Shown here piece after piece: positions 1 to 6,069 of a stretch of DNA of 6,069 nucleotides (within the stretch, counting starts at the first letter, position 1; each line of letters starts with the position of its first letter). The position numbers were made by a program, and so were the translations under genes. The notes beneath the pieces were generated by a model. The model did no database searches, was not told the origin of the DNA, and was given only the letters and a program-made list of their open reading frames with translations. The stretch lies in IMG/VR virus record IMGVR_UViG_2713896896_000013. The stretch is one strand, 5' to 3'. This DNA is from a virus (Duplodnaviria; Heunggongvirae; Uroviricota; Caudoviricetes).

Positions 1-1428
1 GTGAAATTATTCAGATTCTCTAAAGTAAAAATTGCAGAGCTGCCAACGCCGGAGCATGGACAGGCCGAATATGGTGATACGGAGGTTAACGGGCTGCGTG
101 TCCGTGTGGGTTCGTCTGGTGTGAAAAGTTTCTGCATTTCCCGTAAGCGTAACGGAAAATTTATTCGTGCAACGCTGGGGCGTTTTCCTGATCTGAGCGT
201 GGATAATGCCAGGGCGAAAGCAATGGAACTTCTCGGAGAAGTCGCCACAACGGGGATAAATCCGAACATAGCGAAGCGCACGAACAACAAGGCCATGATA
301 ACGCTGAATGAGGCACTTGAAGCCTACATAAAAAATCGTGGCCACCGCCTGAAACCCGCCACAGAAAAACAGTACCGCAGCATATTACAGAATTATTCCG
401 GTGACTGGATGGTGCATACCCTCGCCAGTATTACCCGCGAACGTGTGGAACAGCGGCATAAGGCCGTTACCGACGGGGCTGTATGGTTCGGTGCTGATAA
501 AACCACGTTACGGGCTGGGGTTGGTACAGGAAGCAAGGCACAGGCCGATTTATGGGCGCGTGCGCTGCGTGCTGTGTGTCGGTTTGCGCATGATCATTAC
601 CGTGATGATGCGGGTAATACTCTTTTACCGGATCCGCCGACGCTTGTACTGAGCACAAAACGGCAGTGGCACGGAACGGTAAGAAAAACGGAACGTATCC
701 GCCTGCATGATTTTCCCCGCTGGTTTGCTGCTGTAGCTGCTGTACGCGACCAGGGCGAACAGGAAAGGGATGATATAGCGGTGACGGTATGTGATGCCGT
801 GGAAATGGCGCTTTTTACCGGACTGAGGAAATCAGAAATTTTTGGCCTTACGTGGGATCGCGTGAATATGGGCGGTCGTTTTTTCTGGATAGACACCACG
901 AAAAACGGGGATCCGCTCGAATTACCGATTACTGATACGTTGCGGGAAATGTTCCACCGTCGACTGAAAATAAAAAACGCTGATGATGTTCTGGTGTTTC
1001 CTGGTGTGAAGGGCGTTATCCAGGAGACACGGCACATCATAGACCGGATAAGCGCGGCTACTGTTCCTGAGTCGAACGATGAAATGCTCTCCCCTGTACC
1101 ATTCAAATGGCACGATGCGCGCCGGACGTTCGGGACGGTTGCCGAACTGGTGGGCGTGGGTAATTACATCCTCAAGCGCCTGATGAATCACCGTACTATG
1201 CGAAGTGCCGACGTAACGCAGGGATATTTACATTTTGGTGCTGATGAACTGCTGGAGCCAGCGTCACGGATAGAACGGGCAATTCTGGAACATGCCGGGC
1301 TGGTGGAGAGTAAAAAATCTATCGATGCGCAATTGCTTTCCGCACTGGAGAGTATGAGTGACAGTGAGAAACGCGCATTACTATTTAGTATCGTTAATTC
1401 AAATGGTGGTTTGAATGTCAGAAAATAA
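1..1428 (+). CDS. int: Tyrosine-type site-specific integrase (phage integrase family, P4-like)
   Basis: 475-aa ORF starting at GTG at window position 1, so the upstream RBS is not visible and the N-terminus may be slightly incomplete. The N-terminal region resembles an integrase arm-binding domain (GLRVRVGSSGVKSFCISRKRNGKF...). The C-terminal half carries the tyrosine recombinase catalytic signature in order: R in LFTGLRKSE, H-x-x-R in WHDARRTFGT, catalytic Y in VTQGYLHF. Stop TAA at 1426-1428. A hand count of one stretch (61-120) gives 35/60 G+C. Confidence 0.9.
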   Translation: MKLFRFSKVKIAELPTPEHGQAEYGDTEVNGLRVRVGSSGVKSFCISRKRNGKFIRATLGRFPDLSVDNARAKAMELLGEVATTGINPNIAKRTNNKAMITLNEALEAYIKNRGHRLKPATEKQYRSILQNYSGDWMVHTLASITRERVEQRHKAVTDGAVWFGADKTTLRAGVGTGSKAQADLWARALRAVCRFAHDHYRDDAGNTLLPDPPTLVLSTKRQWHGTVRKTERIRLHDFPRWFAAVAAVRDQGEQERDDIAVTVCDAVEMALFTGLRKSEIFGLTWDRVNMGGRFFWIDTTKNGDPLELPITDTLREMFHRRLKIKNADDVLVFPGVKGVIQETRHIIDRISAATVPESNDEMLSPVPFKWHDARRTFGTVAELVGVGNYILKRLMNHRTMRSADVTQGYLHFGADELLEPASRIERAILEHAGLVESKKSIDAQLLSALESMSDSEKRALLFSIVNSNGGLNVRK

Positions 1429-2101
1429 AATCATTGCTGCAATAGAATTTGACCATAATGATGCGAAGGATATGAATACTATTGCAGATTATATTAGAGA
1501 TGAACTGGCGTCTTCTTTTGTAAAAAAAACGATATGCGATATGGCAAATATCACACCATCTAAAATGTCTCTGGAGGAGAGATTATCATTATCGTCAGAG
1601 ATAGAAAATAAGGATTTAAAAGTTAATATTTCTGTATGTGCCGGGTATGAAGATGATTTTGATAAAAAATTTAATAGTGCATATTCAGAATTCAATGATA
1701 TTTTGAAAGCTGCCATTATATTTGAAGTTCTTGGTTTCAACAGACTTGCAGATCAGTTACGTGAAAGATATGCGATTTTAGTGTCGGAGAATTTATTAAA
1801 ATCAGTACGTGATATAGCTAATGTAAAGAAAATTATCAGTGAAGACCGTAGTAAAGCAAAGAAAGGAAAAACAAACAGGCATAAATCAACAGCGTTATCT
1901 ATAGCTTGTAACACTTGGAAAAAATACCCTAATGCCAGTTTACCCGGGCTATCCGCAGAGATATACGCGCACTTACGCAATAAATGGAATGATGTCCCTG
2001 TAGTTGGGACTATAGAGAGATGGCTTAAGGAGTCGGGGATGAATCCAAAATTCCCGCAAAAAAACAGGGATTTTAAGTTAGTTACTGGAGACAAAGAATA
2101 A
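1415..2101 (+). CDS. Hypothetical protein, 228 aa, AT-rich accessory gene of unknown function
   Basis: Uninterrupted ORF with ATG at 1415 that overlaps the integrase stop by 14 nt, with a weak GGTGG Shine-Dalgarno at 1405-1409. A hand count of 1441-1500 gives 17/60 G+C, well below the flanking genes. The protein is rich in K/E/D/N/I and I recognise no catalytic motif, transmembrane segment or signal peptide. Confidence 0.6.
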   Translation: MSENKIIAAIEFDHNDAKDMNTIADYIRDELASSFVKKTICDMANITPSKMSLEERLSLSSEIENKDLKVNISVCAGYEDDFDKKFNSAYSEFNDILKAAIIFEVLGFNRLADQLRERYAILVSENLLKSVRDIANVKKIISEDRSKAKKGKTNRHKSTALSIACNTWKKYPNASLPGLSAEIYAHLRNKWNDVPVVGTIERWLKESGMNPKFPQKNRDFKLVTGDKE

Positions 2102-2170
2102 ATCCAGTTTTATCCTCTGTAATCCAGATTTCAGCCATGTAAACCAGATATGCGATTTTGTATCTGGTTT
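2101..2170. promoter_or_regulatory. Phased CCAG(AT) repeat array ending in a perfect 10-bp inverted repeat; candidate protein-binding region or weak terminator
   Basis: CCAG occurs at 2104, 2124 and 2144, exactly 20 bp apart, in the contexts aatccag, aatccagat and aaaccagata. A fourth copy is inverted at 2161-2170 (tatctggttt), giving a perfect 10-bp inverted repeat AAACCAGATA (2141-2150) / TATCTGGTTT (2161-2170) with a 10-bp spacer. It sits between the AT-rich gene stop (2101) and the alpA-like start. Confidence 0.35.
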
Positions 2171-2242
2171 TCCTGTCTTCAAGACTTCCCCATCGCTAAA
2201 TAACGTATACCTGTTCTTAATCAGAAGTATACGGTGATACTC

Positions 2243-2431
2243 ATGCATTTAGAAAAAATGACCCGCAAAGAAGCCGCCGAGCATTTGGGGGTAAGTGTCC
2301 AGACTCTTGCTAACTGGGCGTGTACTGGCAAAGTAAAAATCCCTTTTCATAAGCTGGGGCGCAAAGTGCTGTATATGCGCACTGATCTCGATGCTTATAT
2401 TGCATCCACTCGCAGAACGCAGACGGTGTAA
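2243..2431 (+). CDS. alpA: AlpA/excisionase-family helix-turn-helix DNA-binding protein (putative excision or transcriptional regulator)
   Basis: Small ORF with stop TAA at 2429-2431. The translation MTRKEAAEHLGVSVQTLANWACTGKVKIPFHKLGRKVLYMRTDLDAYIAS matches the excisionase/AlpA-type HTH pattern (KEAAE-LGVS...T-..W......P..K-G.). The start is uncertain: in-frame candidates are GTG 2234, ATG 2243 and ATG 2258, none with a strong SD; 2258 gives the most family-typical N-terminus. Confidence 0.75.
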   Translation: MHLEKMTRKEAAEHLGVSVQTLANWACTGKVKIPFHKLGRKVLYMRTDLDAYIASTRRTQTV

Positions 2432-2939: not shown

Positions 2940-3137
2940 ATGGCTGTAAAACAGCATACCCCACGCCTAGCGCACACACAAACCGCCTTTGTATGGCGTT
3001 TTCTGGCACTGAGTGCCGGAGAATCCCAGATCATCCACGTCACCGCATGGACGGAACGCGAAGCGCGTAACCGTTGCCCGTCCGGCTGTATTGCCGTATT
3101 CGCTGCCCGTATCCGTCAGGGGGTGTGCCATGCCTGA
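2940..3137 (+). CDS. Small protein (65 aa), tentatively Icd-like (host cell division inhibitor Icd family)
   Basis: ATG at 2940 with SD AGGAG (2927-2931) and an 8-nt spacer; stop TGA at 3135-3137. The translation MAVKQHTPRLAHTQTAFVWRFLALSAGESQIIHVTAWTEREARNRCPSGCIAVFAARIRQGVCHA recalls the signature I remember for Icd-like small proteins of P4-like islands (F-W-R-F-x-A ... E-x-E-A-R ... F-A-A-R). The family assignment is from memory, not a search. Confidence 0.55.
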   Translation: MAVKQHTPRLAHTQTAFVWRFLALSAGESQIIHVTAWTEREARNRCPSGCIAVFAARIRQGVCHA

Positions 3138-3456: not shown

Positions 3457-3756
3457 ATGAGAACATATTTATCTGGCTTGACTGCCAGCGGTTATGCACA
3501 CCCCAAAATTATCCCCGGCGCTATTTATCTGGATAAGAACGGTAACAGAGTAACGGTAAAAGAACTGATGTTTGATCGTGTTTATTTTATCCGTGATGGA
3601 TATTCATTTCTTAGTTCGCTGAACGTGGAGATCTTTATTTGCAGATTCCGGCGGGAAATCCCGACTTCCAGAAATAACCATGTGTCACGTGTGGATGTGG
3701 ATAAAAAACTACAGGAACTGAAAAACATGATTGCCGCGTGGAGAGAGCAGAAATGA
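3457..3756 (+). CDS. Hypothetical protein (99 aa)
   Basis: ATG at 3457 with an SD-like GGGGA about 10 nt upstream. Its stop TGA (3754-3756) overlaps the ATG of the replication gene (3753-3755) in an ATGA arrangement. No recognisable motif. Confidence 0.6.
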   Translation: MRTYLSGLTASGYAHPKIIPGAIYLDKNGNRVTVKELMFDRVYFIRDGYSFLSSLNVEIFICRFRREIPTSRNNHVSRVDVDKKLQELKNMIAAWREQK

Positions 3757-5570
3757 AAAAAGCGCCAAATTTAAAACACCAGCCGCGTGACAAAATGACG
3801 GAAGTCATCATTTTTGCGGGTAGTGATGCGTGGGCACATGCGAAACAGTGGCAGGAACAGGACGGGCGACTGGCTGGCGATAACGTCCCTCCTGTCTGGC
3901 TTGGAGAGCAACAACTTGCCGAACTGGACAACCTGCAAATCGTACCGGACGGACGCTATCGCGTGCGTCTCTATCAGGCGGGGTTATTGCGTCCGGGGCT
4001 TGTTAATACCATCGGGCAGAAACTGGCAGCGGCAGGTGTCAGGGATGCTGATTATTATCCTGAAGGAATGCACAGCCAGAAACGGGAGAACTGGCGCGAA
4101 TATCTGGAACGTGAGCGGGGAGAGCTGGCGGAAAAGAAAAAGGTAGTTGAACTGCCTGTAAAGAAAAAAGAGCGGGTAAAAGACGATAACGCTTCATCAC
4201 TGGCACTTAACCAGATGGGAGCAAGTCAACGCGGCGAAGTTCTCCTGGCACATTATGGCGGTGAACTGGCGATTCATGCTGACTCTGACACTGTTCACCA
4301 TTACAACGGCGTTGTATGGGAGCCAGTACAGGATAAAGAATTACAGCGAGCTATGGCACAGATTTTCATTGATGCGGAGATCAGCTATTCGCAGAACGCC
4401 ATTAAATCGGCGGTCGATACCATGAAGTTAAGTTTGCCTGTTATGGGGAATACAGCCCGTAACCTGATTGGATTCAGTAACGGGGTATTTGATACCAGAA
4501 CAGGTAATTTTCGGGAGCATAACAAAAACGACTGGTTGTTAATTGCCAGTGAATTACCTTTCAGCCCACCAGCAGAGGGGGAAACGCTGGCAACACATGC
4601 GCCGAATTTCTGGAAGTGGTTACGCCGTTCGGTGGCTGAGAATGACCGCAAGGCGGATCGCGTACTGGCTGCATTATTCATGGTGCTGGCGAACCGGTAC
4701 GACTGGCAGTTATTCATTGAGGTAACAGGTCCAGGGGGAAGTGGTAAAAGCGTGATGGCGGAGATTTGCACCATGCTGGCGGGTAAGGCCAACACAGTAT
4801 CGGCAAGCATGAAGGCGCTGGAAGATGCAAGGGAACGCGCGTTAGTGGTTGGCTTTTCGCTGATTATCATGCCGGATATGACCCGCTACGCTGGTGATGG
4901 GGCAGGAATTAAGGCCATTACAGGCGGTGACAAGGTGGCAATTGACCCAAAACACAAAGCCCCCTACTCAACGCGTATTCCGGCAGTAGTGCTGGCGGTT
5001 AACAATAACGCCATGTCATTCAGTGACCGCAGCGGGGGGATCTCACGTCGTCGGGTGATATTCAATTTTTCGGAAGTTGTACCGGAGAACGAACGCGATC
5101 CAATGCTGGCGGAAAAAATAGAAGGTGAGCTGGCGGTAGTGATTCGCCATCTGCTTACACGGTTTGCTGACCAGGACGAAGCCAGACGCCTGTTATATGA
5201 GCAGCAGAAATCTGAAGAAGCACTGGCGATAAAGCGAGAGGGGGATTCGCTGGTGGACTTCTGCGGCTATCTCATGGCGTCGGTAATGTGTGATGGCCTG
5301 TTAGTGGGTAATGCTGAAATTGTGCCATTCAGCCCACGCAGGTATCTCTATCATGCCTATCTGGCTTATATGAGGGCACATGGGTTTGGTAAACCTGTAA
5401 CACTGACGCGCTTCGGTAAAGATATGCCGGGGGCAATGGCGGAATATGGCAGGGAGTATATGAAACGGAAAACGAAGCACGGTTTGCGTTCAAACGTGAC
5501 ACTGACGGAGGAATCAGAAGACTGGATGCCATCATGTGTATCGGTCACTAATGACGATAGCAAAAATTAA
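3753..5570 (+). CDS. Replication initiator with D5_N-like region and SF3-type P-loop helicase domain (P4 alpha-like / PICI Pri-Rep-like primase-helicase family)
   Basis: 605-aa ORF from ATG 3753 (the track gives a GTG 5 codons upstream at 3738). Walker A motif GPGGSGKS in FIEVTGPGGSGKSVM; candidate Walker B hydrophobic run plus Asp in LVVGFSLIIMPDM. The segment IGFSNGVFDTRTGNFREHNKNDW resembles the D5_N motif that precedes SF3 helicase domains in P4-family primase C-terminal-domain proteins. It is immediately followed by an iteron array. Stop TAA at 5568-5570. Confidence 0.88.
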   Translation: MKKAPNLKHQPRDKMTEVIIFAGSDAWAHAKQWQEQDGRLAGDNVPPVWLGEQQLAELDNLQIVPDGRYRVRLYQAGLLRPGLVNTIGQKLAAAGVRDADYYPEGMHSQKRENWREYLERERGELAEKKKVVELPVKKKERVKDDNASSLALNQMGASQRGEVLLAHYGGELAIHADSDTVHHYNGVVWEPVQDKELQRAMAQIFIDAEISYSQNAIKSAVDTMKLSLPVMGNTARNLIGFSNGVFDTRTGNFREHNKNDWLLIASELPFSPPAEGETLATHAPNFWKWLRRSVAENDRKADRVLAALFMVLANRYDWQLFIEVTGPGGSGKSVMAEICTMLAGKANTVSASMKALEDARERALVVGFSLIIMPDMTRYAGDGAGIKAITGGDKVAIDPKHKAPYSTRIPAVVLAVNNNAMSFSDRSGGISRRRVIFNFSEVVPENERDPMLAEKIEGELAVVIRHLLTRFADQDEARRLLYEQQKSEEALAIKREGDSLVDFCGYLMASVMCDGLLVGNAEIVPFSPRRYLYHAYLAYMRAHGFGKPVTLTRFGKDMPGAMAEYGREYMKRKTKHGLRSNVTLTEESEDWMPSCVSVTNDDSKN

Positions 5571-5581
5571 ACTTATGGAAT

Positions 5582-5815
5582 AACTGTTCACCACTGTTCA
5601 CCCTGTCATAAATATCTTTTATATCAGTATATTATAGGGTGAACAGTTGTTTATGAACTGTTCACCAAACTATTCACTGTTCACCTTTTTGATTGTTTAT
5701 TGAGCTTCAAGGGTGAACAGTGGTGAACAGTTGGTGAATAGTTTTTGTGAAACTGTTCACCCCTTAACATTATGAATTAAAAGAGAAAATATCAAAAGGT
5801 GAACAGGTGAAGGGT
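5582..5815. repeat. Iteron array, candidate replication origin (9-mer GGTGAACAG / CTGTTCACC, both orientations)
   Basis: CTGTTCACC at 5584-5592, 5594-5602, 5658-5666, 5677-5685 and 5753-5761. GGTGAACAG at 5638-5646, 5712-5720, 5722-5730 and 5798-5806, plus a degenerate GGTGAATAG at 5733-5741 and partial copies (ctgtca 5603-5608, ctattcac 5670-5677, ggtgaaggg 5806-5814). Tandem copies are phased at 10-11 bp. AT-rich stretches at 5606-5637 and 5762-5797 could act as unwinding elements. The core octamer TGTTCACC is, as I recall, the alpha-protein binding iteron of the P4 ori and crr. Confidence 0.75.
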
Positions 5816-5892
5816 TAAAACGCAAAAATTTTAATTTACTGCTGTGAGATAAAGCCTATGACAGCGAAGCACACCAAAACAACAGGAGGGGA

Positions 5893-6069
5893 ATGATGAT
5901 CCGTACGGGGATAACATACCGTTTTAAGCAACGAGTGACAGAAGCCGGAGCAATCCGGCTTTTTATGGGTCCTCCCGGTGTAGTGACCTGCCACGGGGCG
6001 GGAGCGGCGCGGAAAAAGGCTGGTTTTTGCATTTTCATGGCGGCGGCAGCATGTGTGATAATTTATTGA
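5893..6069 (+). CDS. Small hypothetical protein (58 aa), tentative
   Basis: Strong SD AGGAGG (5884-5889) followed by tandem ATGs at 5893 and 5896; in-frame stop TGA at 6067-6069, exactly the last three bases of the window. Product MMIRTGITYRFKQRVTEAGAIRLFMGPPGVVTCHGAGAARKKAGFCIFMAAAACVIIY. It is below the 60-aa cutoff of the ORF track. A terminator-like hairpin lies inside it, which lowers confidence. Confidence 0.35.
   Translation: MMIRTGITYRFKQRVTEAGAIRLFMGPPGVVTCHGAGAARKKAGFCIFMAAAACVIIY
5941..5966 (+). terminator. Terminator-like hairpin with GNRA loop and U-tract on the + strand
   Basis: Stem AGCCGGA (5943-5949) / TCCGGCT (5954-5960), extendable by an A-T pair (5942/5961), with loop GCAA, followed by TTTTAT (5961-5966). 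It lies inside the tentative small ORF, so it may be an attenuator, the 3' end of a short transcript, or coincidental. Confidence 0.3.

Follow-up and report, generated by a model that had tools for sequence, protein, structure and literature searches.

The window analyzed here, a 6,069-nucleotide stretch of a virus of the class Caudoviricetes (IMG/VR record IMGVR_UViG_2713896896_000013), is the left part of an island of about 10.8 kb, whose insertion site in E. coli lies between nfeF and tRNA-Ile. Between the integrase gene (int) and alpA of this island lies a 228-amino-acid (aa) gene of an uncharacterized family, hereafter X, which we conclude is likely a component of the island's life cycle rather than cargo. 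X joins an exchangeable N-terminal module to a conserved, DNA-binding-like C-terminal module, and the latter co-varies with an array of phased repeats that leads from the X stop codon towards alpA. Judging from these sequence comparisons, X probably binds the array; that it gates alpA, as a DNA-binding regulator with a swappable sensor module, is a proposal we make more tentatively. Throughout, loci are given as L numbers, L001 being the window's own island. The genes concerned are the following.

1–1428, plus strand: tyrosine integrase gene (int), 475 aa, with Arm-DNA-bind_3 and Phage_integrase domains (Pfam; RefSeq annotation in L001 and L002).
1405–1409, plus strand: Shine-Dalgarno sequence (SD) of X, GGTGG, read from the sequence; it lies within the int coding region, 5 nt before the ATG.
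1415–2101, plus strand: X, the 228-aa int-overlapping gene (iolg-like; open reading frame [ORF] list, homologues, hidden Markov model [HMM], and ratio of nonsynonymous to synonymous substitution rates [dN/dS]).
2243–2431, plus strand: alpA (HTH_17; Pfam, with the RefSeq start).

A sequence-only reading of this DNA had taken X for recently acquired cargo at a variable spot, and had raised the prospect that the slot holds different genes in different strains. We sampled related islands through the integrase alone, independently of X, and obtained 16 loci with intact int and alpA from Buttiauxella, Kluyvera, Pectobacterium, Yersinia, Serratia, Pantoea, Leclercia, Raoultella, Citrobacter, and Xenorhabdus. 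Rather than different genes, a member of the same family occupies the slot in 14 of the 16 (HMM E ≤ 1e-35). The two exceptions both come from Xenorhabdus: L014, the only locus with an unrelated ORF, and L017, the only empty one, where a 206-bp spacer (5401–5608) separates int from alpA. The L014 gene (5441–6142) encodes 233 aa at a G+C of 0.295, neither overlaps int nor matches the family or Pfam, and may be true cargo. Among complete E. coli genomes, the integrase is present in about 87 and the window's version of X in only 58, but the four other E. coli islands that we opened at the same site (Int 92–98% identical) all carry an int-overlapping family member, of 238–266 aa, which brings the variants at this chromosomal site with an X-family gene to five of five. 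The order int-X-alpA is kept in every one of the 48 X-carrying loci, and these same loci differ in their replication modules (D5 primase or AAA_25) and late modules (ClpP-capsid fusion or capsid-forming PICI genes; PICI, phage-inducible chromosomal island).

The AT-richness on which the idea of recent acquisition leaned is real. The counts of 17 G+C in 60 nt at 1441–1500 and 35 in 60 at 61–120, within int, are exact, and over the whole genes G+C is 0.342 in X and 0.510 in int (0.289 and 0.497 at third codon positions). The G+C of X, however, lies 9–18 points under that of its own int in all sampled X-carrying loci, and in nearly all loci X starts inside or directly against the int stop codon (overlap 0–41 nt, mostly a 4-nt ATGA). 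AT-richness and overlap are thus traits of the whole family, not marks of recent acquisition, and together with the distribution and the purifying selection described below they speak against recent cargo. The spot is variable in the sense that there is rapid exchange within it: what varies is the N-terminal module of X and the C-terminal specificity type, not the presence or absence of unrelated genes. Measured against the refuting condition set in the sequence-only reading, X is core by distribution and not cargo, yet it shows neither a conserved sequence nor a normal G+C. The supposition that the satellite backbone has no gene between int and alpA fits the prototype EcCICFT073, which has a different, 409-aa integrase and an empty 365-bp int-alpA spacer, but not the present integrase lineage, for which the slot has likely been mis-filed as a defence hotspot. 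We rejected as a counterpart EcCIMP1_002, from the same slot of a studied E. coli PICI, a protein of about 67 aa unrelated to X in size.

X is a real gene, as judged by a search of 5.8 billion clusters, which gave 86 relatives at E ≤ 0.01, and by an overall dN/dS of 0.03–0.35. Where dS is unsaturated, dN/dS is 0.03–0.09 in the C-terminal part of X and 0.10–0.26 in the N-terminal part, compared with 0.02–0.12 for int and 0.01–0.11 for alpA; both halves of X are under purifying selection. The gene runs from an ATG at 1415 to a TAA at 2099–2101, and its start falls within the int stop region, as the sequence-only reading had noted: int ends with a TAA at 1426–1428 and shares its last 14 nt with X. 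This overlap, with the SD inside int, is the layout expected for translational coupling. An internal promoter for X was considered and rejected, the one promoter-like site being within X and such sites being fewer than in shuffled sequences. The description of X as an orphan also holds. X has no match in Pfam, NCBIfam, PHROGs, or PADLOC; two profiles compared with PDB sequences found no relative; and a Pfam scan of 132 diverse family members gave stray single hits only and no credible domain, with no enzymatic or toxin-like domain either in these or in X itself. By sequence, X does not belong to a curated helix-turn-helix (HTH) family of Pfam or NCBIfam, and tblastn found no match to it in 50,697 phage records or 72,556 plasmids. 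The same ORF in E. coli is labeled ‘hypothetical protein’ in RefSeq, the relatives that have a name are all ‘hypothetical’ and all from Enterobacterales, and a profile search of 1.84 billion representatives returned only 151 proteins of the family.

Truncated or frameshifted copies of the window's X occur in public assemblies (protein database entries P0091, P0101, and P0103), as an N-terminal fragment of 110 aa and a frameshifted C-terminal piece of 92 aa; loss of the gene thus happens now and then. In a Citrobacter genome (L003, 5852–6832), an insertion sequence with a DDE_Tnp_1 transposase lies between int and X and parts the normally overlapping pair.

Within X, two modules can be told apart.

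1415–1699, plus strand: N-terminal module, residues 1–95 (coverage classes, dN/dS, alignments).
1835–2098, plus strand: C-terminal module, residues 141–228 (motifs KAKKGKTNRH...TW.KYPNAS...W).

The N-terminal module is acidic (pI 4.46), helical, and exchanged between islands, and the N-terminal part of the protein evolves two to four times faster than the C-terminal part. The conserved C-terminal part covers residues ~96–228 of the query, with a core at 144–223 (BLAST coverage classes and alignments), and its near-invariant residues include T167, W168, P172, W203, and P211. It is found behind at least four unrelated N-terminal modules, in proteins whose length across the family is 190–290 aa. 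The C-terminal module is basic (pI 9.95), with a putative three-helix, winged-helix-like fold. A co-variation of the Int C-terminal tail with the X N-terminal type was set aside, as it is explained by the overlapping reading frames and provides no independent evidence. Remote relatives of the C-terminal domain occur in Vibrio splendidus as stand-alone genes (L053, 7001–7777, and L054). They border an element whose capsid gene is of the PM2-type double-jelly-roll kind (P2_N/P2_C) and have SLATT and toxin-antitoxin genes as neighbors, so the domain serves as a module in mobile elements more widely.

The spacer between X and alpA contains a phased repeat array, which in the window has these parts.

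2101–2109, plus strand: repeat 1, AATCCAGTT, found by repeat search (20-nt spacing) and as a conserved block of the type-I alignment; it shares a base with the X stop codon.
2121–2129, plus strand: repeat 2, AATCCAGAT, 20 nt after repeat 1 (repeat search, type-I alignment).
2142–2169, plus strand: inverted repeat AACCAGATA-N10-TATCTGGTT, made up of repeats 3 and 4 (2142 and 2161; repeat search, alignment, RNA folding).

The inverted repeat is the most conserved block of the spacer, and both of its arms change together in L034, L049, and L051. Across loci, arrays consist of two to four repeats, phased at about 21 bp and running from the X stop codon towards alpA. Other lineages have the same layout with unrelated sequences, for instance three CATAGCGCGTT-TGATC repeats 21 and 21 nt apart, paired ATAGCC-GGCTAT palindromes, or four TAGCTGGCTA-type repeats, the array carried by E. 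coli NCTC9699 (L059). The best self-match falls at a lag of 20–22 nt in 27 of 38 distinct loci, against a mean of 7.1 and a maximum of 14 in shuffled sequences. The end of the last repeat lies 68–73 nt from the alpA ATG in 19 of 21 loci, over five repeat types, and exactly 73 nt from it in 10 of the 11 type-I loci. In L017, which lacks X, a phased array is not evident by eye, a judgment made without a formal test. Rfam has no match at or near the spacer.

Similarity between arrays follows similarity between X C-terminal domains (Spearman rho 0.70), compared with rho values of 0.25 for AlpA, 0.26 for the Int arm-binding domain, and 0.29 for the X N-terminal module; in 22 locus pairs, AlpA is at least 90% identical yet the arrays are unrelated. 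The E. coli islands give the pattern in miniature. The X proteins of the window and L060 are 21% identical in the N-terminal part and 88% in the C-terminal part, and the two loci have the same array. Likewise L059 and L062, at 23% and 81%, share an array, one unlike that of the window and L060, and between the two pairs both the C-terminal part (34% identical) and the array switch. That five unrelated repeat sequences all keep one phasing and one distance to alpA would require a protein reader varying from lineage to lineage, as only the X C-terminal domain does.

Downstream of the array, the leader of alpA has two features that bear on how the array might act.

2178–2206, plus strand: candidate alpA promoter, with a weak −35, TTCAAG (2178–2183), and a −10-like TAACGT (2201–2206), placed by conserved blocks and the constant repeat-alpA distance.
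2204–2238, plus strand: alpA leader hairpin, in which CGTATAC (2204–2210) pairs with GTATACG (2227–2233) and which abuts the SD GGTGAT (2233–2238).

In the type-I alignment, a conserved CTnTCT block stands 3–4 nt past the array, at the expected −35 position, and is followed by a −10-like AATAAT/TAAAGT and then by a hairpin that includes the alpA SD. The consensus of this hairpin is TATCACC-N-GGTGATA; its 3' arm runs into the SD, and its 5' arm is abutted by the −10-like hexamer. The alpA-proximal part of the spacer, with the leader hairpin, is conserved in all loci, those without X included. We infer that int-X read-through transcripts would carry the whole hairpin, with the SD closed, and transcripts from the alpA promoter might be without the 5' arm, leaving the SD open.

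By anatomical definition, X is best filed as an enterobacterial counterpart of iolg, the int-overlapping gene of the Vibrio satellites known as PICMIs (phage-inducible chromosomal minimalist islands). iolg overlaps int by 1, 4, or 13 nt, ATGA being the most frequent form (Barcia-Cruz et al. 2024, PMC10803314), and is found in 21 of 35 PICMI subfamilies, in 13 families unrelated to one another. In PICMI115, whose iolg is the only int-overlapping gene to have been studied, the gene is needed for the helper to induce excision, packaging, and transduction, and expression of int and iolg is constitutive whereas alpA is phage-induced; its function and mechanism are described there as unknown (PMC10803314). 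Like iolg, X lies on the same strand between int and alpA, in a satellite with an int-alpA-primase core, and its start overlaps the 3' end of int (14 nt in the window). Further points of likeness are the lack of a known domain, the many divergent families, the few elements without the gene, and the constitutive expression with int inferred for iolg. The two differ in that iolg belongs to Vibrio PICMIs and X to PICIs and capsid-forming PICIs of Enterobacterales, and in that iolg has no reported two-module build or co-varying repeat array; an excision phenotype has been described for PICMI115 only, and X is likened to it by its anatomy. Scans of viral and metagenome contigs with the PICMI115 AlpA gave no PICMI loci. 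The Vibrio relatives of the X C-terminal domain (E ~1e-10) are not linked to int, and so provide no evidence that X equals iolg.

Among the PICIs of Gram-negative bacteria, alpA acts as master activator and excision factor, whether they have a global repressor is ‘unclear’, and the helper switches on alpA in an unknown way (PMC6092414); the ‘integration zone’ of enterobacterial PICIs has been described as Int and AlpA only (PMC10111431). For X, we propose the following. X would be translated together with Int, from overlapping genes and an SD within int. Its basic, winged-helix-like C-terminal module would bind the lineage-specific array, which would run from the X stop codon to right against the −35 of the alpA promoter, and its acidic, exchangeable N-terminal module would take the input, most plausibly through contact with a helper-phage protein, or else with Int or AlpA. 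By occupying the array, X would gate alpA, the switch for excision and replication, so that induction is coupled to a particular helper phage. The sign of this control could be of either kind. X may be an activator or co-activator of alpA, a reading that fits the place of the array upstream of the promoter and the non-excising PICMI115 iolg deletion; or it may be a repressor or roadblock that keeps constitutive int-X transcription out of alpA, a reading that fits the co-directional layout and the hairpin. The gene layout, occurrence, modular build, and purifying selection of X, like the phasing, fixed spacing, and co-variation of the repeats, are observed; DNA binding, the target promoter, and the sensor role are inferred.

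A bolder form of this proposal, which we regard as rather doubtful, has X sense the helper phage for a large clade that takes in Gram-negative PICIs and capsid-forming PICIs, with an N-terminal module that binds a specific helper protein and thereby toggles the C-terminal module on or off its operator array. In that event, which is no less doubtful, X would be a functional equivalent of staphylococcal Stl, built differently, and would set which phages induce the island. Stl (Rpr), of the Staphylococcus aureus pathogenicity islands (SaPIs), is satellite-encoded, next to int, and constitutively made, as X would be under our proposal; it is modular, with a DNA-binding part and a variable part that binds a helper-phage protein; and its operators lie just upstream of the genes with which the satellite cycle begins, an arrangement to which the X array may be likened (PMC6092414). 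The differences are as clear. The Stl gene and its target operon diverge, and the Stl HTH is N-terminal, whereas X points the same way as alpA and carries its DNA-binding-like module at the C-terminal end; the two have no sequence or recognized family relationship, and the PICMI iolg phenotype points away from repression. The pairing of X with its array can also be compared with the specificity modules of phages and plasmids (repressor-operator immunity regions and Rep-iteron pairs), where a DNA-binding domain and its adjacent repeats are inherited and exchanged as one unit and form lineage-specific pairs; the analogy is one of evolutionary pattern only, with no homology to X, whose binding is proposed.

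Several points weigh against a regulatory role for X at alpA. The position of the alpA promoter is itself derived from conserved blocks and the repeat-alpA distance. Because the array adjoins the X 3' end, physical linkage would by itself suffice for the co-variation with the C-terminal domain; in E. coli L059–L062, moreover, the block exchanged relative to the window extends from mid-X through the spacer to the first ~25 alpA codons, such that the AlpA N-terminus switches with the array, the remaining AlpA being identical between variants. EcCICFT073 is induced by helper phages without a gene in the slot, so X is not a universal requirement. The authors of the PICMI115 study proposed a role for iolg in the excision complex, not in regulation (PMC10803314). 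Finally, the hairpin at 2142–2169 may double as, or simply be, an int-X terminator, since as RNA the inverted repeat forms a hairpin, and some loci have a U-tract there.

Of the other explanations, the one that survives best, though we consider it unlikely, is that X serves excision as a cofactor and not transcription as a regulator, partnering Int and AlpA physically in the excisive complex in an architectural or recombination-directionality-type role, as proposed for the PICMI115 IOLG. The lineage-specific repeat motifs that go with X are absent from the att arms, as judged over ~300 nt at the left end in 21 loci: the only matches, 90–260 nt upstream of int, belong to an element conserved whatever the X type, no match lies near the right end in L001, and the array is about 2.2 kb from the left att site. 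This independence from X type weakens the alternative, although X could still act through protein contacts. With its two modules and 190–290 aa, X is also unlike the small Xis-type proteins and has no HTH_17 or Xis hit in Pfam, and the PICMI115 iolg deletion was complemented only with int and iolg together (PMC10803314).

It is more improbable again that the repeats are cis elements for something else, whether an int-X terminator or insulator or the sites of a helper-phage or host factor, that their co-variation with X comes from tight linkage, and that the function of X lies elsewhere. The inverted repeat does form a stable RNA hairpin in every lineage (z −2.3 to −5.4), which in the window (UUUU) and in L006 is followed by a U-rich tail, and repeat 1 overlaps the stop codon, so that an exchange of the X 3' end carries the array along. 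On the other side, L034, L019, and L020 lack the U-tract, and a terminator explains neither the direct repeats upstream of the hairpin, at 20–22 bp or two-helical-turn phasing, nor the constancy of phasing and alpA distance over five unrelated repeat sequences.

Very improbable, finally, is the anti-phage or helper-interference function suggested by the sequence-only reading, with X as a single-gene system in the PICI 5' accessory region whose N-terminal module senses or targets phage proteins: rapid exchange of that module and the AT-richness of X would suit it, but we found no positive support: no PADLOC family was matched, and domains of an enzymatic or toxin-like kind are lacking. Islands of the integrase lineage nearly all have a single family in the slot (a truly unrelated gene occurs only in L014), X is always coupled to int, and, while defence genes usually travel widely, X has no relatives in the searched phages and plasmids. 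Immune systems have reportedly been found at the 5' or 3' ends of PICIs (Fillol-Salom et al. 2022, as cited in PMC11364771), which underlies the sequence-only idea and also counts in favor of cargo; the 5' accessory region treated there is the same place next to int and holds varied, unrelated defence systems, whereas the X slot holds a single int-coupled family with no match to a defence model. That a satellite regulator can double as an antiviral factor, as with SaPI2 Stl2 (PMC11846896), likewise lends this explanation some plausibility.

The regulatory proposal addresses an acknowledged gap, namely how Gram-negative phage-inducible islands detect a helper and switch on alpA. Int-overlapping genes are not confined to Vibrio PICMIs, being near-constant in the present integrase lineage across Enterobacterales, and X gains both a definite architecture, in which a conserved DNA-binding-like module is coupled to a swappable one, and a definite candidate target, a phased array against the putative alpA promoter. 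If the proposal is true, exchange of the N-terminal module would account for helper specificity and give a handle for engineering PICI-based delivery vehicles; in its bolder form, a swap of that module would also re-target an island to a new helper phage.

Beyond alpA, the gene order in the window is a YlcI/YnfO gene (minus strand), an Icd-like gene, a hypothetical gene, DUF4222, a D5-type primase, and an iteron-rich origin; a ClpP-protease/capsid fusion gene and other late genes lie 3' of the origin, past the end of the window. Two of these genes were placed as follows.

2940–3137: Icd-like gene.
3738–5570: D5-type primase gene.

Directly after the primase, an AT-rich region (5584–5806) holds ten exact copies of GGTGAACAG and one with a single mismatch, on both strands; over the whole window, matches with at most one mismatch number 13, against 1.2 expected. 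This array is the iteron-type replication origin of the island. Just upstream of the Icd-like gene and reaching a few bases into its start, positions 2870–2947 have weak Rfam matches to the SymR antitoxin (minus strand, E 0.014) and to an R1162-like antisense RNA (plus strand, E 0.063), both far under the gathering scores; they could reflect a small antisense RNA, or chance.

At the ends of the island (L001 coordinates), the left boundary is a 46-nt tRNA-Ile 3' fragment (5775–5820) and the right one an intact tRNA-Ile (16762–16837). A 21-bp repeat, ACGGTATCCTATAGGTATCCT, occurs at 5927–5947 and 16694–16714, about 100 nt inside the left end and about 70 nt inside the right end, and the pair resembles Int arm-type sites. 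An inverted repeat, GGTATCCTGGA...TCCAGGATACC, lies just upstream of the int start in the same island. About 100 nt upstream of int, outside the window, six islands (L004, L006, L009, L012, L020, and L029) have a LexA-box-like sequence, CTGTATAAATAACCAG (CTG-N10-CAG), which is degenerate in L001; int-X may be under SOS control in some islands. L006 and L007 contain the same Klebsiella island, flanked in one by P2-like tail and ogr genes and in the other by the lysis and terminase genes of another prophage; these prophage flanks fit the ‘helper-embedded PICI’ habit described for this integrase clade (PMC10111431).

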